Made by a program: the position numbers and the translations under genes. The notes below the pieces were generated by a model, which was given only the letters and a program-made list of their open reading frames with translations, was not told where the DNA came from and ran no database searches. DNA of 64,000 nt from Deltaproteobacteria bacterium (lineage in GTDB: Bacteria; Desulfobacterota; Dissulfuribacteria; Dissulfuribacterales; QOAL01), in assembly GCA_026991135.1 (NCBI GenBank), contig JALXCD010000067.1, forward strand, positions 532 through 64,531, given 5' to 3'. Below, piece by piece: positions 55,658-64,000 of this stretch (its first letter is position 1; every line of letters begins with the position of its first letter).

Positions 55658-56260
55658 TTGGTTGACTGGATTTTTCAACTGGATAAGGCCCTTTTTTTCA
55701 TGATAAACAGGGCCCATTTTCCATTTTTAAACACCGTAATGATAAAGGTCTCTGATTTTTCCTTCTGGGTCCCCATTATAGCCCTTTTTATAGTCTATAG
55801 ACTCGTAAGGGGAACTAATCGCGAAAGGCTCATGTGGCTTTTGGGTATTTTTCTTGTAGTTACAAGTGATGCCCTTTGTGCAAGGCTCCTTAAGCCCCTT
55901 TTTGGAAGGATAAGGCCCTATGAGGCCCTTGACGGGGTTTATCTTTTTAAGCATTCAAAATGGATAATTACAGATCCCCATTTCAGAAAGGCAATAGCCG
56001 GCACCCTTTCATGGCCCTCGTGCCATGCCACCAACTGCTGGTCAGTCACATTCTATCTTTTGGGAACAAAAAGGCTCCTTGGCCTCTTTTTCGCCCCTAT
56101 TGCCCTTCTGGTCAGCTATTCAAGGATATATCTAGGGGTTCACTATCCCCTTGATTGCCTTGGAGGAGTTTTAGTAGGGGCCATTTGGGGAGGAGTCTTT
56201 GTTATTGTTTATAGAATTATTCTATCAAATCTTGATAAAAGATATTCGGATCTTTTCTAA
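55658..56260 (+). CDS. PAP2 family lipid phosphatase
   Basis: KX6RP ('KPLFGRIRPY'), 'PSCH' and 'SRIYLGVHYPLD' motifs. TTG start. Confidence 0.8.
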   Translation: MVDWIFQLDKALFFMINRAHFPFLNTVMIKVSDFSFWVPIIALFIVYRLVRGTNRERLMWLLGIFLVVTSDALCARLLKPLFGRIRPYEALDGVYLFKHSKWIITDPHFRKAIAGTLSWPSCHATNCWSVTFYLLGTKRLLGLFFAPIALLVSYSRIYLGVHYPLDCLGGVLVGAIWGGVFVIVYRIILSNLDKRYSDLF

Positions 56261-56458
56261 AAAGACAAACCAAAGCCCCACTCAATTTTTGTAGAATTTT
56301 TTGTCATTAAAGGCCCTTTAAAAATGTATGAGAAACGGCCTTAAAAACTTTGCCACCTTTAAAGAGGTGAAAACATGTTTTTAAAAAATCATCGAATTTT
56401 GTTACCCTTATCTCAGAAAAAAGGACCTACCTTCTACCATGTCCAAAATGCCAGGCCT

Positions 56459-57112
56459 TTAAAGATGGGTTTCAGCTTCTTTTGCCATTTGTTTTAAAAC
56501 TTGGATTACTTCCGGCTTTTCTTTCAATTCAGGATAGTCTTCTAATGTTGTTGCTGCCTTGAGATAAAGATCAAAATCCTGACCAAGAAATTTTTTTCTA
56601 AAACCCCTTCTTGCCATATCAAAATCGTAATGGAATTTTCCCCAGAGAAAGGCAAGATCATACGGGTCTTTCCAAAGAACTCGTCGTCCGCAAGCATATA
56701 TCTTGTTTAAAAAAAGATCATAATCGCTGAAGGTGACAATACCGTAAACATCTTCCGTGTCGTTTATTGGTTTGAAAGGAAACGATATAAATGACACCTT
56801 TATTTCCTGGATGAATACATCGAGATTGTCGGCTCCAGGTTGTTGGATGAAACCTTCGATATCAAAATTCTTTTGTATCTTCCCAAGAATTGAGGTAAAT
56901 GTCCTGTCTTCGTTAAAAAAGAAATCTAAATCTAGGCTTTCCCTATGGTTGTGGCGAAACATGATGGCAGTTCCGCTGCCAAGGACAAAGGAAGGAAAAA
57001 TTCTTTGTATTTCATGTGCCAGGTGAAACAGTTTTTTCTGCCGGGTTTTTGGACACAAGGGATTTTCTCCATTCCTTAACTGCTGCCCTACAACCTCGAA
57101 AGACATCGTCAT
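56459..57112 (-). CDS. AbiEii/AbiGii-type nucleotidyltransferase (type IV TA toxin family)
   Basis: 'LGSGTAIMFRHNHRESLDLDFFF' matches the GGTAL..HR.S.D.DFF NTase signature. 217 aa. Confidence 0.6.
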   Translation of the reverse strand: MTMSFEVVGQQLRNGENPLCPKTRQKKLFHLAHEIQRIFPSFVLGSGTAIMFRHNHRESLDLDFFFNEDRTFTSILGKIQKNFDIEGFIQQPGADNLDVFIQEIKVSFISFPFKPINDTEDVYGIVTFSDYDLFLNKIYACGRRVLWKDPYDLAFLWGKFHYDFDMARRGFRKKFLGQDFDLYLKAATTLEDYPELKEKPEVIQVLKQMAKEAETHL

Positions 57113-57329
57113 AGGTATTAATCACATGGCTGCAGACATCAGGCCAGAGTTCAAATGCAAGTCGAAGAGCCTTGTAGTTTGTTGAGTCACACATAATTCT
57201 ATGAACTAAAACTTCCAGCATGATCTTATTGTCAACGGCATCCCATGCCCATTTTTTTAATTCAGCCGGGACAGAAACTATCTGGGTGAATTTCGGCCTG
57301 ATTCGTTTAACGGTGCCTTTGACGTGCAT
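57012..57329 (-). CDS. hypothetical protein upstream of and overlapping the NTase (possible cognate antitoxin)
   Basis: 105-aa ORF whose last 101 nt overlap the NTase ORF in another frame. No SD seen. No family recognised. Confidence 0.35.
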   Translation of the reverse strand: MHVKGTVKRIRPKFTQIVSVPAELKKWAWDAVDNKIMLEVLVHRIMCDSTNYKALRLAFELWPDVCSHVINTYDDVFRGCRAAVKEWRKSLVSKNPAEKTVSPGT

Positions 57330-57413
57330 AACTTATTTTAACACGTTATGATGTCTCTGAAAAAGTAATTATTCTTTAGAGAAAAAGGGAGTCTAGGCTT
57401 TTATCGTCCTCTG

Positions 57414-57456
57414 GGGAAGGAACTTTGAAGGGTTCATTTTTATATGCCTCCAGCAT
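57414..57456 (-). repeat. decayed duplicate of the WYL-stop/DUF2779-start junction
   Basis: 57433-57456 (TTCATTTTTATATGCCTCCAGCAT) equals 60567-60591 apart from one missing C. Similarity is weaker on the flanks. On the minus strand it reads ..EMLEAYKN and ATG-AAC-CCT-TCA-AAG (MNPSK..), against ..EKMLEAYEK* and MNLSK.. in the intact copy. Confidence 0.7.
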
Positions 57457-57728
57457 CTCTTACGGATTGCAGACCTGGTTCCTTAAAAAACATGAACTTG
57501 CTCGCATTAGTCCAAAAGCTTAAGGATCGACTCTGGCATCAATGGGCCTTACACACTCTGGCGAGTAATTGGTGGGCTGTTTACCAAAAGGCTAACCGGC
57601 CAGGCGGTCATCTTGTCTGAAGGTATGGGGCCAAGAAGTGCAACAAGTTCCCTGTCTGGCGTCTTTCTTAAAAGCCATTTTTCATAGCAAGATTTTTTAA
57701 GGGATAACTGGCATATCTTTCCTGTTTT

Positions 57729-58001
57729 TCAGTATCTGGATAATTTTTTGTAAATATCCCGCCTGTGGCCAACCTTTACAATCCAGACAACAAGCTTCCT
57801 ATCCTTTATTGAGTATATTATTCGATAATTGCCTTGACGGATTCTGTATCTTTCTTGCCCTGAGAGCTTTTCACATCCAGGTGGCCGAGGATCATTTGCA
57901 AGGGATTTGATCCGCTTGATGATCTTCTTTAAATCCTTATCAGGGATCTTGTCCAGGTCCTTAAGAACGGATTTCTTTAAAAATATTTTATAGGCGGCCA
58001 T
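57729..58001 (-). CDS. RelE/ParE family type II toxin
   Basis: 'YRIRQGNYRIIYSIKDRKLVVWIVKVGHRRDIY' is the typical RelE/ParE core. 90 aa. Confidence 0.85.
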   Translation of the reverse strand: MAAYKIFLKKSVLKDLDKIPDKDLKKIIKRIKSLANDPRPPGCEKLSGQERYRIRQGNYRIIYSIKDRKLVVWIVKVGHRRDIYKKLSRY

Positions 58002-58221
58002 GCCGTTTAAGCTCTTTTAACACATCCTCAAAGGCAATTAGGGGTTCGTCTGCCCTTTCTTCAAATGCAGCCAAGTCTTCTGCATCTTCTGCAAGGCTTA
58101 GACGTATGGCCTCGTTAATAAGCTCTGACATGGACCGTGATGTGGCAGCTGCCTTTATTTTTAAGGCCCTGTGAATATCAGGATCCAGATATACTGTGGC
58201 CCTTTTGCTAAGCTGTGCCAT
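57988..58221 (-). CDS. ribbon-helix-helix antitoxin
   Basis: 'KRATVYLDPDIHRALKIKAAATSRSMSELINEAIRLSL' is an RHH fold pattern. It overlaps the toxin start by 14 nt. Strong SD AGGAGGTG. Confidence 0.8.
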   Translation of the reverse strand: MAQLSKRATVYLDPDIHRALKIKAAATSRSMSELINEAIRLSLAEDAEDLAAFEERADEPLIAFEDVLKELKRHGRL

Positions 58222-58307
58222 ATTGTCACCTCCTGGTATTAAAGCAGTATAACATCAAAATGTTTTTGTGACTATAGGTTGGTTAGATGAGGATGTATTT
58301 TTTTCTT

Positions 58308-58323
58308 TGCCAGCATTTACCAG
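58308..58323. promoter_or_regulatory. candidate operator upstream of the parA remnant (TGCCAGCATTTACCAG)
   Basis: Nearly the same two-hexamer unit as the first two iterons of the downstream array (TGCCAGCATATTGCCAG at 58996-59012). Confidence 0.45.
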
Positions 58324-58346
58324 AAAAGCACGAGAAGGGGCACGAA

Positions 58347-58739
58347 ATGCTAGTAATTGCCATAGCCAATCAGAAGGGAGGAGTCGGAAAGACCGCAACC
58401 ACCTTTAATCTTGCTCATGCCATTTCAAGGGCTGGGAAAAAGGTCCTCATGGTTGACCTTGATCCCCAGGGGTCGCTTACTGACTATGCGGGCTTTATTC
58501 CTTCAGAGCAGGATGACACCATCTATGAGGTGCTTCACGGCCAAAAATCCATTCTCGACGTCATACTTAAAGAAGAAGGGGAGGGCGCAGGCGACATTAA
58601 GGTCTTTTCTCCCATTATCTACACAGTAAGAATACAGGAATCCCCTGTGGCAAAGCAGGCTATATTTGATTACGCCCCAGAGACCGAGGCAGGAAAAAGA
58701 TTCTTGGAGCTTGGAAGGGAGGTAATAGATGAGTGCTAA
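58347..58739 (+). pseudogene. parA: ParA/Soj-type partition ATPase with a large in-frame internal deletion (probably non-functional)
   Basis: Deviant Walker A 'NQKGGVGKTATT' and A' 'VLMVDLDPQGS' are present. The ORF is only about 130 aa. It jumps to a ParA C-terminal-like end ('ESPVAKQAIFDYAPETEAGKRFLELGREV') with no Walker B region. Confidence 0.6.
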
Positions 58740-58995
58740 AAGGGTTTCCATGAAGGGGGCAAAGGGTCTTTTAGGCGGAATAGCCCCTAGGGACAAAAAG
58801 ACATCATCTGAAGAGGCAGTTAAAACTGCTCAAACTGTGACAAAGACCAAAAAGAAAGACATAAAATGGCGAAAGGCCACAATAAGGTTTGAAGAGGGTT
58901 TCTTTCTAAAAATTAAGGATAAGCTAGCAAGGGAAGGCCGCACCCTTCAGGGATACATTGAGTACTTGATAAGACGGGATATGGAAAAGGACTGA
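58729..58995 (+). CDS. ribbon-helix-helix protein, ParG-like putative centromere-binding protein
   Basis: A Lys-rich flexible N-tail is followed by 'RKATIRFEEGFFLKIKDKLAREGRTLQGYIEYLIRRDM' (beta-alpha-alpha pattern). The start overlaps the parA stop. Confidence 0.6.
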   Translation: MSAKRVSMKGAKGLLGGIAPRDKKTSSEEAVKTAQTVTKTKKKDIKWRKATIRFEEGFFLKIKDKLAREGRTLQGYIEYLIRRDMEKD

Positions 58996-59086
58996 TGCCA
59001 GCATATTGCCAGTAAAAGCTGGTAAATACTGGCAATATACTGGCAATTACCAGCAATATTACAGTAAATGCTGGCATTCGCTGGCA
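58996..59086. repeat. phased iteron array (putative parC/parS-like centromere): 9 hexamers CTGGCA/TGCCAG and variants at 10-11 bp spacing
   Basis: Hexamer starts: 58996 and 59007 (TGCCAG), 59019 (CTGGTA), 59029 and 59040 (CTGGCA), 59050 (CCAGCA), 59061 (ACAGTA), 59071 and 59081 (CTGGCA). The array fills the whole convergent intergenic gap. Confidence 0.7.
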
Positions 59087-59095
59087 CATAAAGAA

Positions 59096-60571
59096 TCAAA
59101 GGCCGGCGACTTTACACAGAAATTCATAAAGCCTTAAAAGGGCCAGGGTATCCAGGCGGCAGTATTCTAGAAGTGCATTCCTTATTTTTTCCCTCTCCTC
59201 CCTGTCTTTTATCAGGTGAAGTGTGGCAAAGGTGTCCATGGCCATTCCCCCATTTCTGATTTCAAGTCCATTGTAATCAAGGGTTTTGTCATCTGGGAAA
59301 ATGGCAGGCAGGACAGACTTTAGCGAAAGGCTGCCGTTAAATTCCGGGTGGTAGTAGCCCCCGTTCCTAAATGGCTCCATAAGGTCCTCAAATCTTTCTA
59401 GAAGGGAGAGAAGCTCATTTTTGCGAAGAGGGTCATAATCTGCAAGCCCTTTTATTATCCCTTCTTCAAAGCCCTTGTTAAAGGCCACAATGCTCCCTTG
59501 GGGCCTTATGTCCTTTAGCATATGTGAAATGACATGATTTCTAGGGTCCTCGTTTTCATCTGCCAGAAACTCCCTGTGTTCAAGGTTTCCGTCTTCGTAA
59601 AGTATGTGGAGGGAGTATTGAAAGGGTATATGCATGTAGGGCCTTTGTCCGTCAAACCTTGGGATTGGCTCATTGAAGGTTTCAAAGTCAAAAAAGTGTA
59701 TGGGATAGGAAAGGCGAGAAAGAAACTGCCTTATCTTTTTCCTGTCAACATGGACGGAACCCGTCTTTTCGGTCTCTATCTGAAGTGCCTGTATGGCATT
59801 GGGCCTAAAGTCTTCCGGGATGTCTGAGATTTTAAGAATGCCTTCCTGGTAAAGCTCAAATTTCTTAGCCTGAGTTAGGCGGTAAAGATTAAAAATAGAG
59901 CGCTCGGGCACATTGCGCCAGCACCATGACATATAGTCGCAATCATAAAAATTAAAACAGTGGGGACCAATATCCACTTGGGGCATATCGCCTTTAAGCA
60001 TCGTAGAAAATTTTTGTCTGTAATCCTCAATTTCTCCCTGCTTGGACACCACCTCATGGGTTACGTCCTTAATGGCAAAAAGCCCCTTGATGTCTAGCTC
60101 TCCCTTGCGGACGTAGCTGTTGTCTATATGAATGATGAAGGCCCTTTTTATCCTAAGGCCAAAGTTTGAAAAAGCCCTATATTGAAAGGCAACATCAAGA
60201 ATGTGATAGTCCTTTACGGACGTAGAGGCCTTTACCTCATATATTTCCCAGCCATCCCCGTCTCTTTTGAGGATGTCTGCCATTGCAAAGTCTCCCCTTG
60301 CGCTTACCGTGGCTTCATAAATCGTATCCACTCCGGCATCAAGCCACTTCCTGGTCTGGCTGATCATGCCTTTAAAGTTTTCAGGGTCAAAGGCCACCTC
60401 TTTTCCGCCAGGAAAAAGCCTTTTAGCCAGATCTCCCACCATGCGTCCAGATTCAAATCTGGCCTCTTGCCCCTGGTCCGGCTCATCCCTTGGAATGTCG
60501 CTATTTTTGTAGAGCCAAAGGGATTTTGCGCACTTGACTCCCCTTACAAAAAGGGACTTAGAAAGATTCAT
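59096..60571 (-). CDS. DUF2779 protein: N-terminal Cas4/RecB-like PD-(D/E)xK nuclease with Cys cluster, plus a C-terminal DEDD-like exonuclease
   Basis: 'MNLSKSLFVRGVKCAKSLW' is a DUF2779-type N-terminus. Also 'DGWEIYEVKAS', 'HCFNFYDCDYMSWC', 'FFDFETF' and 'YCRLDTLAL'. Confidence 0.7.
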   Translation of the reverse strand: MNLSKSLFVRGVKCAKSLWLYKNSDIPRDEPDQGQEARFESGRMVGDLAKRLFPGGKEVAFDPENFKGMISQTRKWLDAGVDTIYEATVSARGDFAMADILKRDGDGWEIYEVKASTSVKDYHILDVAFQYRAFSNFGLRIKRAFIIHIDNSYVRKGELDIKGLFAIKDVTHEVVSKQGEIEDYRQKFSTMLKGDMPQVDIGPHCFNFYDCDYMSWCWRNVPERSIFNLYRLTQAKKFELYQEGILKISDIPEDFRPNAIQALQIETEKTGSVHVDRKKIRQFLSRLSYPIHFFDFETFNEPIPRFDGQRPYMHIPFQYSLHILYEDGNLEHREFLADENEDPRNHVISHMLKDIRPQGSIVAFNKGFEEGIIKGLADYDPLRKNELLSLLERFEDLMEPFRNGGYYHPEFNGSLSLKSVLPAIFPDDKTLDYNGLEIRNGGMAMDTFATLHLIKDREEREKIRNALLEYCRLDTLALLRLYEFLCKVAGL

Positions 60572-61566
60572 TTTTCATATGCCTCCAGCATTTTTTCCAA
60601 GGCATGCCTAATTTCTTCTCTTAGGCCTTCTGGCTCTAGGAGCTTTGCCTCTGGCCCATAGGTCATCACCCACCTTTTTATGTCGTACCAGCCAGAGGTG
60701 ACCATCTCGAGTATGATGGAGCCGTCGGGCTTTTCAGTAATCTTCTGCTTTCTTGCCCATTTGCGCTCCCTTATGTAGCGGGCCTGATCCCTTGAAAACC
60801 AGATCTTTACGGTGAACTCCTCGTCGTAGATGATGCCAAAGGTGGTATTAAGGAACTTTTCTGGGTCAAAGTCCTCGGGATACTCAAAGGTCTCGTCTGT
60901 TATCTTTAGATCCTTTATTCGCTCAACGGCCAGAATCCGTATCTCATCAAATCGACAGATATTAACAAAGCAATATAGCCCACCGTTGTTTTCAAAAAAA
61001 TAAAGGGGAGCGATCCTGAAATTCTTGATCTTGTCGTCTGAAAAGGCATGGTAGGTTACTAGACAGACCTTGCCCTTGAGTATGGAGCTACAAAGGTCCT
61101 CTATCACCTGCTGCTTGTCAGAATAGTCCTTGTTGAACTTAGAAGGCGCAACAAAGAGAGAGCGCACCTTTTCAAGCTGGGGAAAAAGCCCGGAAGGGAC
61201 AAACATCTCTATCTTTTTGAAGGCGGAATCTATCCTCTTTTCTATGTCTGTTCCTCTAAAGGCCGCCTCTCCCTTTTTAAGGAGATAAAGAGAGATGATC
61301 TCGGAAAGTGAAAAACGCACATCCGGTATGGTAAGATTTGGAAGTCTTTTTTGAAACTCATCAATAAAAAACCACCTCTTTTTTCTTCCAAGGGGCTCCT
61401 TTTCATTTGTCAGTGGAAAGCCCAGCTCCTCTATGGTGTTTAGAAGCCGATAGACAGACCTTTTGTCTATCTCCAGGCGTTCTGAAAGCTCGTTGACCGT
61501 TGCCCCGGAGGGCCTACTCAAAAGATCTATGGCCCTTAGAAGTTTTATAAGGTTTGCGCCCCTCAT
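60568..61566 (-). CDS. WYL-domain transcriptional regulator (wHTH-WYL-WCX architecture)
   Basis: wHTH 'LLRAIDLLSRPSGATVNELSERLEIDKRSVYRLLNTIEELGFPL'. WYL-like core 'VCLVTYHAFSDDKIKNFRIAPLYFFENNGGLYCFV'. The ORF is open to a GTG at 61623; I prefer the ATG at 61566. The stop overlaps the DUF2779 ATG (ATGA). Confidence 0.8.
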   Translation of the reverse strand: MRGANLIKLLRAIDLLSRPSGATVNELSERLEIDKRSVYRLLNTIEELGFPLTNEKEPLGRKKRWFFIDEFQKRLPNLTIPDVRFSLSEIISLYLLKKGEAAFRGTDIEKRIDSAFKKIEMFVPSGLFPQLEKVRSLFVAPSKFNKDYSDKQQVIEDLCSSILKGKVCLVTYHAFSDDKIKNFRIAPLYFFENNGGLYCFVNICRFDEIRILAVERIKDLKITDETFEYPEDFDPEKFLNTTFGIIYDEEFTVKIWFSRDQARYIRERKWARKQKITEKPDGSIILEMVTSGWYDIKRWVMTYGPEAKLLEPEGLREEIRHALEKMLEAYEK

Positions 61567-61604
61567 TTTCCCTTTCTTAAAATTTTCTGAAATTTTTTTT
61601 AAAA

Positions 61605-61625
61605 GTGTGACCAGTTTCGTCACAC
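61605..61625. promoter_or_regulatory. perfect inverted repeat GTGTGAC-N7-GTCACAC in the divergent control region (candidate WYL operator)
   Basis: The 7-bp arms are exact reverse complements. Located between the WYL start (61566) and the ClpP-like start (61695). Confidence 0.5.
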
Positions 61626-61694
61626 ATTGCTGTCATGATAGTTCCCGAAGGCAACTTCACCTCAAACTCCAAACTTTATCATTACGGAGGGAAA

Positions 61695-62264
61695 ATGGAA
61701 AAAGAAAATGTGAGGCAGTCATCGGAAACCCTGGGAGACCAGGGGATAATTTTTATTTCAGGGACCATAAACGAAGGCATATCAGAAGATGTATGCAGGC
61801 AGATCCTGGAGATAAACATCAAGGAGAAGGTGGATCACATCCAGATGATTATAAATTCGTCAGGCGGAGCAATGAACGCAGGCTTTGCAATCATAGACAT
61901 GATGGAGTGGTCATCCATTCCCGTATATACCATTGGCATAGGCATAATCGCTTCCATGGGGCTCATGATTTTTATGGCGGGCGAGAAGGGAAGAAGAGTC
62001 ATAACCCCCAGAACATCCATACTTTCCCATAGGTTTTCCTGGGTCAACCTAGGTCACCATAGCCAGCTTGTGGCTGCAAGGAAGGAAGAGGACCTTGCTC
62101 ACGAAAGGATAGTTGCCCACTACCAGCGCTATACCAGGATTAAGGATCGTGGCGAGCTTGAAAGCACGCTCCTTAGGGACGTGGATACATGGCTGTCTCC
62201 AGGAGAGGCGCTGAAATACGGCATTGCAGATATCATAGAGCCTGGAAGAAGGCAGGCCCTTTAA
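61695..62264 (+). CDS. ClpP-fold (S14-like) serine protease paralogue lacking the N-terminal axial-loop region
   Basis: It aligns by eye to E. coli ClpP from 'RVIFLTG': 'GIIFISG', 'INSSGGAMNAG', 'IASMG' (Ser), 'ILSHRF' (His), 'RDVDTWLSPGEALKYGIAD' (Asp). ATG at 61695 follows the SD GGAGGG; the track ORF starts at 61635. Confidence 0.75.
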   Translation: MEKENVRQSSETLGDQGIIFISGTINEGISEDVCRQILEINIKEKVDHIQMIINSSGGAMNAGFAIIDMMEWSSIPVYTIGIGIIASMGLMIFMAGEKGRRVITPRTSILSHRFSWVNLGHHSQLVAARKEEDLAHERIVAHYQRYTRIKDRGELESTLLRDVDTWLSPGEALKYGIADIIEPGRRQAL

Positions 62265-62289
62265 ACAGTCAAAAAAAGGAGGAAAGCAC

Positions 62290-64000
62290 ATGACAGAAAC
62301 AAATTGCATGGCAGCGGGCTTTGCAGCGCCAACATTAAAAATATCTCCGCTTGGGTCTAGATGGCACGTTGGAAAGGGAGAAACGGACAGGGAGTATTTT
62401 AGAACCAATCTTGAGCATCTGGAAATGATAGAGACAATCATGAAGCTTAGGCTCTGTGAAGCCTGTTTGAGGATAAAGGGACTTGAAAGATTAGAAAAGA
62501 CCCCCTTTGCCAGGCTTGCCCGCAAATATCCTGACTTAAAAAGCGTTAGAGAAGGAATACAATTTCTTGAAGGCAAGAGAAAATTAATGGAAAAGAGCTC
62601 TCTTAAAGAGGGAATAGAGCTTAAACTTTTGCGCCTTGCCGAGACATACGGGCTTAACGAATTTGACCAGCTTATTGTTCAGCTTCTTCTTGTATATCAA
62701 ACCAGTGTGGAATTTAAGGCACTTGTCGAGGCTTGCAATGATGAAACCTGGGGCTCTGTTTTTCCTATGCCCTCTACAGGCGCCATACTTTCTATTTTGT
62801 GTCCGGATTACAAAAGCCAGTTAAACCATCTTCCACATTTCAGCATGGAAGGCACCCTCATTGGGGAATCCATTATCAAGGCGGAAGGCTTTATCAGGAA
62901 AAAGCCTGTAATGGATGTCAACATGAGTCTTGACGGGCAGATTGTGCGTTTCCTCATGGGCGATGAAAGGCGCTACAGGTCCGATTTTTCATGTATAGAA
63001 GTTACACGTCCTTCAGCCGGGCTTGAGCAAGTGATAATAGACGAGAAACTAAAGAAAGACATAGTGGAATATGCGGAAAATTTTGTGCGCTCAAAAAACT
63101 GCAGCCCATGCAATGACAATTTCTTTGGATATGGTACAGGGTTAACAATGCTTTTTCATGGACCTTCCGGGACAGGGAAGACCATGATGGCTCATGCCCT
63201 TGCTGATCATCTGGGGAAAAAGCTTCTGAGTCCCATTTCTGATGATATTGATGAGCTCTTTGATATTTCGGATATTTTGCCTCGCCTATTCAGGGAGGCA
63301 AGGCTTAGCGATGGCATAGTGTTTCTGGATGAGTGCGACGACATCATAAGAGCTGATTCGGCTGCAAACCGCGCCTTTCTTATAGAAATTGAGAAAGCTG
63401 GATGCATAACGATTCTTGCCACGAACAAGGTTTCTGACTTGGATCCAGCCCTTGAGAGGCGTATCAACCTAAGGGTCCGATTTCGTTTGCCAGATAGGGA
63501 TGAAAGGGCAAGAATCTGGCAGACTCTTTTGCCGCCGAATGTCAAAATGGCAGATGATGTAACCTTTGAGGAGCTTGCCGAGAGATTCGTTTTCACAGGA
63601 GGATTGATCAAAAATGCCATAGTGATGGCGTTAAATAGCGCTGAAAAAAAGGGAACAAACATCATCCTTTCTAGAAAGGCCCTATTTAAGGCCGCTTCTT
63701 ACCAGGCTCAGACAATGTTTGATACGTCCAGTCCGGAGCATTCCTATAAGCCTGACATTTCCATCCAGTCCCTTCCCATAAGGGCCGCCGAAAAGGCCTT
63801 TCTCGCCCGCCTTCCGGAAGCACAGAGAAGGAGCCTTGAAAAAAGGGAATGCGGCATTCTTTGCTACCTTGGATGCAGGGATCAGGAAACGGCGGTTTCA
63901 TGTGTGGAGGCTGTTGCTGCAGAATGTGATGCAGGCGTAAGCATGTTCAAGCTTTCGGAAATACTTGCTCCACCCTCCAGGGAGCAAATGGTGCTTGACC
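62290..64000 (+). CDS. AAA+ ATPase (classical clade, Afp15-like N-domain architecture), 3'-partial: runs off the window end
   Basis: Not in the ORF track. My hand translation from the ATG at 62290 (SD AGGAGG 7 nt upstream) gives about 570 codons with no stop. Walker A 'GPSGTGKT' (63160-63183), Walker B 'VFLDECD' (63319-63339), then 'ILATNKVSDLDPALERR', 'RIWQTLLP' and 'TGGLIKNA'. Confidence 0.8.
   Translation, partial: MTETNCMAAGFAAPTLKISPLGSRWHVGKGETDREYFRTNLEHLEMIETIMKLRLCEACLRIKGLERLEKTPFARLARKYPDLKSVREGIQFLEGKRKLMEKSSLKEGIELKLLRLAETYGLNEFDQLIVQLLLVYQTSVEFKALVEACNDETWGSVFPMPSTGAILSILCPDYKSQLNHLPHFSMEGTLIGESIIKAEGFIRKKPVMDVNMSLDGQIVRFLMGDERRYRSDFSCIEVTRPSAGLEQVIIDEKLKKDIVEYAENFVRSKNCSPCNDNFFGYGTGLTMLFHGPSGTGKTMMAHALADHLGKKLLSPISDDIDELFDISDILPRLFREARLSDGIVFLDECDDIIRADSAANRAFLIEIEKAGCITILATNKVSDLDPALERRINLRVRFRLPDRDERARIWQTLLPPNVKMADDVTFEELAERFVFTGGLIKNAIVMALNSAEKKGTNIILSRKALFKAASYQAQTMFDTSSPEHSYKPDISIQSLPIRAAEKAFLARLPEAQRRSLEKRECGILCYLGCRDQETAVSCVEAVAAECDAGVSMFKLSEILAPPSREQMVLD

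Follow-up and report, generated by a model that had tools for sequence, protein, structure and literature searches.

A probable relic of a WYL–DUF2779 gene junction beside an AbiE-like cassette in a variable bacterial genomic island

Within the 64,000-nucleotide stretch of DNA analyzed here (the window) lies a short segment that we read as a non-functional relic, i.e. a pseudogene fragment, of the junction between the stop codon of a WYL regulator gene and the start codon of a DUF2779 gene. The relic would once have been part of a second copy of a locus with the composition SRAP, AAA-ATPase/ClpP, WYL–DUF2779. We give this reading a probability of about 0.7. The scar, as we shall call it, probably does nothing today, and the real dead leftover spans about 40–105 bases. 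A decayed second copy of the junction had been proposed in a preliminary description of this DNA, and the proposal is supported both by significant nucleotide similarity and by the broken reading frames of the segment.

The core of the scar is found on the minus strand at 57418–57458. It comprises the last 6–7 codons of the WYL/WCX gene (EMLEAY), a GGAGG ribosome-binding site, and the ATG with the first 6–7 codons of DUF2779 (MNPSKF). On the plus strand, the sequence of 57433–57456 (TTCATTTTTATATGCCTCCAGCAT) is that of 60567–60591 (TTCATTTTTCATATGCCTCCAGCAT) minus one C; the same 24-nt identity had been pointed out in the preliminary description, and direct comparison agrees. A further 12 matches in the 16 positions to the left had been counted by hand. 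This count is reproduced by BLASTN of 57330–57728 against the whole window, in which 57417–57456 pairs with 60551–60591 at 36 of 41 positions (87.8%, E = 7.7e-8). The resident junction is the single non-self match of note for 57330–57728 within the whole window. Smith–Waterman alignment of the same segment with 60300–61623 gave a score of 40, while 200 shuffles gave a mean of 14.1 (sd 2.0) and a maximum of 25.

In the intact resident junction (60551–60591, minus strand) the TGA stop codon of the WYL/WCX regulator (60568–60570) overlaps the ATG of DUF2779 (60569–60571) as ATGA, and the GGAGG ribosome-binding site is included in the string. The repeated string therefore does span a stop codon and an overlapping start codon in the intact locus, as had been claimed for it. 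In the scar this overlap has been lost because one base is deleted in the core. The minus strand now reads ..NP, a stop codon and EMLEAYKN in one frame, and MNPSKFLPQRTIKA followed by a stop codon (14 codons) in another. These translations agree with the readings ..EMLEAYKN and MNPSKF.. given earlier, including the end of the DUF2779-like frame after 14 codons. There are stop codons on both sides of the scar and the reading frames are no longer intact. The 14-codon ORF stops 62 nt short of the next gene, the next ORF downstream of the scar having its start at 57329.

The preliminary description allowed that the similarity might be limited to the core, which would point to a short shared site. 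This holds for protein, since TBLASTN over 57300–57760 gave no significant similarity to WYL or DUF2779 in the flanks beyond the core. It probably does not hold for DNA on the DUF2779 side, where the similarity appears to extend past the 42-nt core. Here the core-anchored extension scores 6–7 over 48–65 nt with p about 0.0015–0.008, such scores being matched by 3–11 of 2000 dinucleotide shuffles and by 9–16 of 2000 random genomic 73-mers. On the WYL side the extension gave p = 0.04 with the junction type of the closest relatives (the L007 type, below) and p = 0.2 with the resident junction, and WYL sequence beyond about 21 nt is not demonstrable.

The flank on the DUF2779 side (57351–57417, minus strand) is a probable, strongly diverged remnant of the 5' end of that gene, corresponding to about codons 8–29 with an identity of about 60%, indels and stop codons. 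Allowing two frameshifts it reads RGR, a stop codon and KPRLPFSLKNNYFFRD, to be compared with RGVKCAKSLWLYKNSDIPRD in DUF2779. TBLASTN of DUF2779 against the same flank is not significant (E = 3.5). There is thus modest evidence, at the nucleotide level, that about 29 DUF2779 codons may survive in the scar, up to the boundary with the following cassette.

That boundary lies at 57344/57345, and what follows is an AbiE-like two-gene cassette of 887 nt (56458–57344, minus strand). It contains an ORF of 105 amino acids (57012–57329) and an AbiEii nucleotidyltransferase (56459–56962, or 56459–57112 from a longer start). The AbiEii domain is recognized by Pfam (PF08843, 32.6 bits vs a cut-off of 22.5, E = 1e-7) and by PADLOC (AbiEii, E = 6e-5). 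The 105-aa ORF upstream of it has no match to AbiEi or to any other Pfam or PADLOC family; it has only five homologues, and is conserved together with the toxin in five relatives. The whole 887-nt cassette is 86% identical to a unit that lies beside an FBA aldolase gene in related MAGs, i.e. at a different chromosomal locus, and one of these is the MAG of the relative L014 discussed below. The homology starts at 57344, which is 15 nt ahead of the first ATG, and ends with the toxin stop codon (56458/9). Since it begins at 57344, the sequence from 57345 upward is not part of the cassette. This edge is in keeping with the earlier observation that the AbiEii module begins directly after the truncated DUF2779 start. 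In the GC profile the cassette is lower in GC, and there is otherwise no sharp island signature. Two origins had been suggested for the arrangement. The overwriting of a second module by cassette insertion is favored by the way in which the cassette cuts off the DUF2779 side and sits elsewhere in relatives; recombination between two modules is disfavored, as the order of the repeats in the island is unlike that of a tandem duplication.

On the other side of the core the preliminary description had seen a WYL-like frame broken by stops. Instead we find a spacer of 58 nt (57459–57516) and, beyond it, the 3' part of an SRAP (SOS-response-associated peptidase) gene, frameshifted and on the minus strand (57517–57714). 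TBLASTN of WYL against the upstream region, for which 57457–57728 had been singled out, gave a best E of 0.65, and the seven residues EMLEAYK are the sole resemblance to WYL. A decayed WYL gene upstream of the scar was rejected, given this null result and the identity of the sequence as SRAP. Compared with every fetched locus on both strands, the spacer gave no alignment above shuffle level. Because neither the WYL-side flank nor the spacer has detectable homology, the end-points of a deletion on this side cannot be mapped.

The SRAP fragment corresponds to about the last 55–65 codons of the gene. One nucleotide is deleted near 57576, and the native tail ECVRPIDARVDP and stop codon are preserved. 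The translation of the fragment (KTGKICQLSLKKSCYEKWLLRKTPDRELVALLGPIPSDKMTAWPVSLLVNSP..) aligns with the C-terminal 45 positions of the Pfam SRAP model (170–214 of 214, E = 3.9e-4). The SRAP protein of a relative finds the fragment by TBLASTN with E = 1.4e-16, plus a second frame with E = 3.7e-4 past the 1-nt deletion. At the nucleotide level, 57549–57714 of the window is 88.6% identical over 167 nt to a second SRAP copy, at 299–464 of the ENA scaffold L001.

The scar is surrounded by toxin–antitoxin and other accessory genes. Reading along the minus strand, a ribbon-helix-helix antitoxin gene (57988–58221) and a ParE toxin gene (57729–58001), both assigned by Pfam, are followed by the SRAP fragment, the spacer, the core, the diverged stretch, the cassette and then a PAP2 phosphatase gene (55658–56260). 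The latter is on the plus strand and is convergent, so that its 3' end faces the cassette; beyond it are conserved cell-envelope genes and mreB. An Rfam scan and a tRNA/tmRNA scan of the window were empty, and among the ORFs between 55658 and the L001 end none showed an integrase or recombinase domain. A scan for promoters and terminators round the scar gave counts at or below shuffle expectation.

The resident module is intact. The DUF2779 gene (59096–60571, minus strand) encodes 491 amino acids, with Pfam matches to DUF2779 (E = 1.5e-42) and RNase_H_2 and a PADLOC match to Cas4. The protein has a Cas4-like PD-(D/E)XK nuclease region and an RNase H-like exonuclease region, in line with the description of DUF2779 as an uncharacterised protein in which a Cas4-like nuclease is fused to an RNase H-like 3'-5' exonuclease (PMC13621843, PMC3985635). 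The HTH-WYL-WCX regulator (60568–61623, minus strand) has 351 amino acids from a GTG start, or 332 from 61566 according to gene callers, with Pfam matches to WCX (E = 1.6e-20), WYL and HTH. On the plus strand a ClpP-like protease (61635–62264) and an AAA+/WHD ATPase (from 62290, cut by the window end at 64000), also assigned by Pfam, are transcribed divergently from WYL–DUF2779. Together these make up a conserved four-gene module, the same four genes being present in the relatives L007–L010. The ATPase of the module resembles PADLOC IetA (E = 5.5e-19). On an Aliarcobacter plasmid a DUF2779 gene adjoins a WYL gene in the opposite gene order. These intact partner genes have some interest of their own, and have no bearing on the function of the scar.

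The island extends past the end of the window. ENA scaffold_16956 (L001) is identical to the window over 58662–64000 and continues for a further 3.8 kb, which hold the rest of the ATPase (740 amino acids in all), Nmad2, Nmad3, PIN, a Phd-type antitoxin and the second SRAP copy. This copy has the catalytic N-terminus ..CGRF.. and has lost about 63 codons by internal deletion. Comparison of the island with itself revealed exactly three direct-repeat pairs: the SRAP 3' ends, 9.8 kb apart; two 76-nt arrays built from 11-nt units resembling TGCCAGCATAT, 5.6 kb apart; and the WYL/DUF2779 junctions, 3.1 kb apart. Their order is c1 a1 b1 c2 b2 a2 and their spacings are unequal, which excludes a simple tandem duplication, and that model was rejected.

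The local context of the scar is well supported by the assembly. ENA scaffold_254 and a Logan contig from run SRR14510437 reproduce 55945–58555, including the scar, at 100% identity. In the window itself two ENA scaffolds meet within a truncated parA gene, where they overlap by 55 nt (58662–58716), and ENA leaves this join open; a search for an independent contig across it found none. The distance of 3.1 kb from the scar to the intact junction depends on this join, while the context within 55945–58555 does not.

The WYL protein has 608 homologues, of which only three share the C-terminal sequence ..KMLEAYEK, and a C-terminal MLEAY is confined to the closest WYL subfamily (P0001–P0003). L007–L010 carry a 90%-identical variant of WYL and their DNA is about 85% identical to the resident module; L009 comes from the same sample. 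In L007–L009 the SRAP gene comes first, AAA and ClpP follow in the opposite orientation, and WYL and DUF2779 come last; these two share the strand of SRAP. In order and orientation the SRAP fragment and the scar agree with these intact loci, and so look like a collapsed second copy. The core matches the junction of L007, L008 and L010 at 39 of 42 positions (92.9%, E = 4e-11), compared with 36 of 41 for the resident junction, and agrees with the L007 type at all three of the sites that separate the two. It is thus unlikely to be a recent copy of the resident junction, although this argument is suggestive rather than strong. From every known junction the core differs by one deletion and two substitutions. 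Among the intact relatives the junction is not a peak of conservation, as 39 of 42 is reached by 18.5% of 42-nt windows. No intact tandem pair of modules was found among the relatives examined, and none of the genomes retrieved shows the ancestral arrangement that the relic reading predicts on the PAP2 side. Exact-pattern scans for the core returned one intact relative in the JGI metagenomes and none in viral contigs, and no WYL relatives were found in viral contigs either. The distant DUF2779 homologues in GTDB genomes (36–47% identity) have no WYL gene immediately upstream and shed no light on the junction.

Other relatives show that the site itself is unstable. L011, with a WYL protein 89% identical to that of the resident module, has DUF2779 homology that ends 8 nt after the ATG, a truncated ClpP and a replaced ATPase. 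It is therefore another decayed module, and decay of the module has occurred repeatedly in the lineage. In L014 (PAP2 87% identical) a ParE homologue follows about 45 nt after PAP2 and there is no equivalent of 56267–57712. Homology to L014 spans 57713–57962 of the window, and its limit at 57713 coincides with the start of the SRAP fragment at 57714. In L016 (PAP2 78% identical) PAP2 is followed by a 3'-truncated SRAP. Every genome examined has a different content at this site, which makes the interval between PAP2 and SRAP, themselves convergent, a hot spot.

We can propose a history for the scar on this basis. The source would have been a second copy of the SRAP, AAA-ATPase/ClpP, WYL–DUF2779 locus, of which relatives carry a single intact unit. 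One or more deletions may have taken out about 4–7 kb in all, with AAA, ClpP and almost the whole of WYL, between a point just past SRAP and a point about 21 nt short of the WYL stop, and from about codon 30 on DUF2779 would have given way to the AbiE-like cassette. Two routes could have brought the collapsed unit into tandem with the intact module. A second island may have been added at the convergent PAP2/SRAP hot spot. Alternatively, a foreign segment comprising the SRAP fragment, the scar and the cassette may have been imported beside PAP2, with homology anchoring it on one side and an illegitimate join on the other. The coincidence of the L014 limit (57713) with the start of the SRAP fragment (57714) would fit such a join. 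The scheme builds on what can be read from the sequences themselves: the homology of the core, the order and orientation of the SRAP fragment, the abutting of an independently mobile cassette, and the instability of the site in relatives.

One feature fits this history poorly. The core is about 93% identical to its best match and the adjoining flank about 60%, and uniform neutral decay would not yield such a contrast. The source module could have been more distant than L007, the flank could have drifted under new constraints upstream of the cassette, or the similarity of the flank could be spurious, with only the 42 nt surviving.

The same contrast is one point in favor of an explanation in which the 42-nt core serves as a short functional site common to both loci, either a preferred site of recombination or cassette exchange at the WYL/DUF2779 boundary or an element for binding or translation initiation that selection has maintained. 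The core lies between flanks at about 60% identity or unalignable; it contains GGAGG and ATG, and a second lineage (L011) breaks 8 nt after the DUF2779 ATG. Yet the sequence occurs just twice in the window plus the 3.8-kb extension, and the JGI metagenome and viral contig scans gave only the intact junction of one relative. It contains no inverted repeat or palindrome and has no stable fold (z-scores: scar 0.27, intact junction –0.84). The island has no integrase or recombinase, there is no Rfam match, and neither copy lies in the promoter of a module. The 14-codon ORF that it would initiate ends 62 nt before the next gene, and there is probable residual homology in the DUF2779-side flank. We therefore consider a functional site to be unlikely. 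A related idea is that modular exchange within the hot spot makes use of the WYL/DUF2779 boundary, either as a favored point of breakage or as a short site that is maintained. Two independent lineages, the scar and L011, break within about 21 nt of this boundary, and the 42-nt patch at about 93% has neighbors at about 60% or unalignable; we regard the idea as distinctly unlikely.

The scar might also be the product of a recent event within the genome, through duplication or gene conversion from the resident junction or through unequal crossing of two modules resident in the genome. Both copies are on the same strand as direct repeats, 3.1 kb apart, with 24 identical bases. Nevertheless all three informative sites place the scar with the L007 type (39/42 vs 36/41), the flanks are much too diverged for a recent copy, and the repeat pairs have neither the order nor the regular spacings expected of a tandem duplication. 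Such an origin is very unlikely.

Direct repeats in the island could in principle be of the att type, left by site-specific integration of a mobile element. The SRAP 3' pair (88.6% over 167 nt, 9.8 kb apart) does resemble displaced gene ends, and in one copy the homology ends exactly at the gene end. The copies of the WYL/DUF2779 junction are not identical, however, differing by an indel and substitutions; they bound no coherent element, one of them is internal to an operon, and neither an integrase gene nor a tRNA or tmRNA is present. This reading suits the SRAP repeats at best and not the scar, for which it is highly improbable. Lastly, an assembly artefact, in which a metagenomic contig switched between co-occurring strains at a shared k-mer, is suggested by the 90%-identical module of a second strain in the same sample (L009) and by the joining of two scaffolds with a 55-nt overlap, but is extremely unlikely, since a k-mer jump would leave WYL or DUF2779 intact and neither flank is, the core is one deletion and two substitutions from every known junction, and scaffold_254 and the Logan contig both carry 55945–58555 unchanged.

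The relic of a WYL/DUF2779 junction thus remains our preferred reading. It is a small fossil of a WYL–DUF2779 module, probably with its ClpP and AAA partners, that formerly stood beside SRAP and has been lost, with an AbiE-like cassette in its place. The SRAP fragments and the varied arrangements in three relatives mark the gap between PAP2 and SRAP as a site of rapid turnover of defense and toxin–antitoxin genes. For annotation, the 14-codon ORF, a 58-aa ORF on the plus strand (57444–57620) and the 'SRAP' ORF should not be called genes. The scar aids the reconstruction of the history of the island and reveals no new mechanism. Short gene relics are commonplace in variable islands, and the scar is another example, the product of ordinary genome decay.

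Some features of the locus can be compared with known systems. WYL-domain regulators are paired with nuclease or defense genes, for example those of the BrxR/CapW type, and the operators on which known WYL regulators act lie within promoters. The intact locus is similar in coupling an HTH-WYL-WCX regulator translationally, through ATGA, to the Cas4-like and RNase H-like DUF2779. The repeated string differs from a WYL operator in its position, at the 3' end of the WYL gene, and in lacking an inverted repeat. The cassette has the AbiEii nucleotidyltransferase domain and the small conserved upstream partner ORF of an AbiE type IV toxin–antitoxin or abortive infection system, but the partner has no AbiEi match and the toxin is short (167–217 amino acids).

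The SRAP 3' fragment and its copy about 9.8 kb away are direct repeats enclosing accessory genes, and in this they resemble the displaced 3' gene ends of attL/attR-type integration. They differ in that no integrase or recombinase was found and that the repeats are 88.6% rather than fully identical; moreover the WYL/DUF2779 scar lies outside the SRAP-bounded block and not at its border. Gene remnants in variable hot spots and defense islands offer a further comparison. The scar departs from these in straddling a gene boundary and in having a 42-nt core that is much better kept than its flank. Like such remnants, it is a short stretch with broken frames whose homologue is an intact gene pair, lying among other relics (the SRAP 3' fragment, the truncated parA and the internally deleted SRAP) and with toxin–antitoxin and defense-type neighbors, between conserved convergent core genes, PAP2 and SRAP, where the occupants vary from one relative to the next.

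The four-gene unit occupies positions 59096-64000 of the window and continues at 3309-5531 of L001, the ENA scaffold_16956 that runs 3.8 kb past the window end. Two of its genes, for an AAA+/WHD ATPase and a ClpP-like protease, are transcribed divergently from the other two, which encode an HTH-WYL-WCX regulator and a DUF2779 nuclease. At least four further contigs from metagenomes (L007-L010 among them) also carry the unit, with a DNA identity of about 85%, the ATPase gene being less similar at about 74%. PADLOC classes the ATPase as IetA-like (E = 5.5e-19) and matches some of the unit's proteins singly; we found no described system combining these four genes. We regard the unit as a candidate defence module.

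The module is not kept entire in L011, a contig from another relative. DUF2779 is missing there (2230-2603), the WYL gene being 89% identical, and homology to DUF2779 ends 8 nt past its ATG, the break falling between ATGAATCT and AAAGGCC... In addition the ClpP, at 131 aa, is truncated, and the place of the ATPase is taken by a PDDEXK_4 nuclease. This makes a second, independent breakpoint at the WYL/DUF2779 gene boundary.

The AAA-ClpP-WYL-DUF2779 module is bracketed by two arrays of 11-nt units, ATACTGGCAAT and TGCCAGCATAT, in direct and inverted orientation. The arrays (window 58985-59086 and L001 3105-3240) are 84% identical across a 76-nt stretch and form direct repeats 5.6 kb apart. The modules of the relatives lack such arrays. 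One array sits just downstream of a truncated parA and an 88-aa ORF, and for this reason may represent a partition or iteron site of plasmid type. The ParA/AAA_31 match of the parA ORF (58287-58739) is confined to the first ~100 residues. Within this ORF also falls a 55-nt overlap (58662-58716) between two ENA scaffolds, the window being identical to scaffold_254 up to 58716 and to scaffold_16956 from 58662. Overlaps of this length are what a break in a k = 55 assembly graph typically leaves. Just past the window end, and still within the island, scaffold_16956 carries a gene pair for the nucleotide-modification-associated domains Nmad2 and Nmad3 (L001 1492-2948), adjoining a Phd/PIN toxin-antitoxin pair.

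We compared window 56261-57730 with the corresponding regions of two relatives, L014 (10604-11027) and L016 (8292-8700). In L014 a ParE homologue follows about 45 nt after PAP2, so that the 1,446 nt holding the AbiE-like cassette, the decayed WYL/DUF2779 junction and the SRAP 3' fragment in the window are absent. In L016 PAP2 is followed directly by a 3'-truncated SRAP, beyond which lie a 90-aa ORF and a PIN gene. The gap between the convergent PAP2 and SRAP is an insertion/deletion hot spot.

The AbiE-like cassette (window 56458-57344) is found in related MAGs (L017-L020) at another locus, beside FBA aldolase. Downstream of the window cassette (56290-56392) there are short similarities to the flanks of that locus in circularly permuted order: 56358-56390 is similar to the downstream flank (82% over 33 nt), and 56301-56360 to the upstream flank (75% over 60 nt). 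The similarities, which are weak, could stem from a circular intermediate or from a tandem copy that has decayed. At its left edge the cassette has the conserved sequence GTGTTAAAATAAGTTATG (57327-57344, minus strand), which includes an extended −10-like element, TGnTAAAAT, by consensus match only. The element ends 5 nt ahead of the ATG with which the 105-aa ORF begins, a spacing that would point to a leaderless transcript. The putative −35 region would then come from the DUF2779 remnant.

The SRAP peptidase gene is represented twice, by the frameshifted 3' fragment at 57517-57714 (minus strand) and by a distal copy at L001 1-475 (about 67346-67820 in extended window coordinates). Over 167 nt the two 3' ends share 88.6% identity; they are direct repeats and lie about 9.8 kb apart. 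The native tail (ECVRPI..) is still present in the window fragment. In the distal copy the CGRF N-terminus is preserved but about 63 codons are deleted internally, and its homology ends right after ..ECVK. No integrase is visible for a reading of the pair as island borders; in form the two SRAP 3' ends are similar to the displaced gene ends found at such borders.
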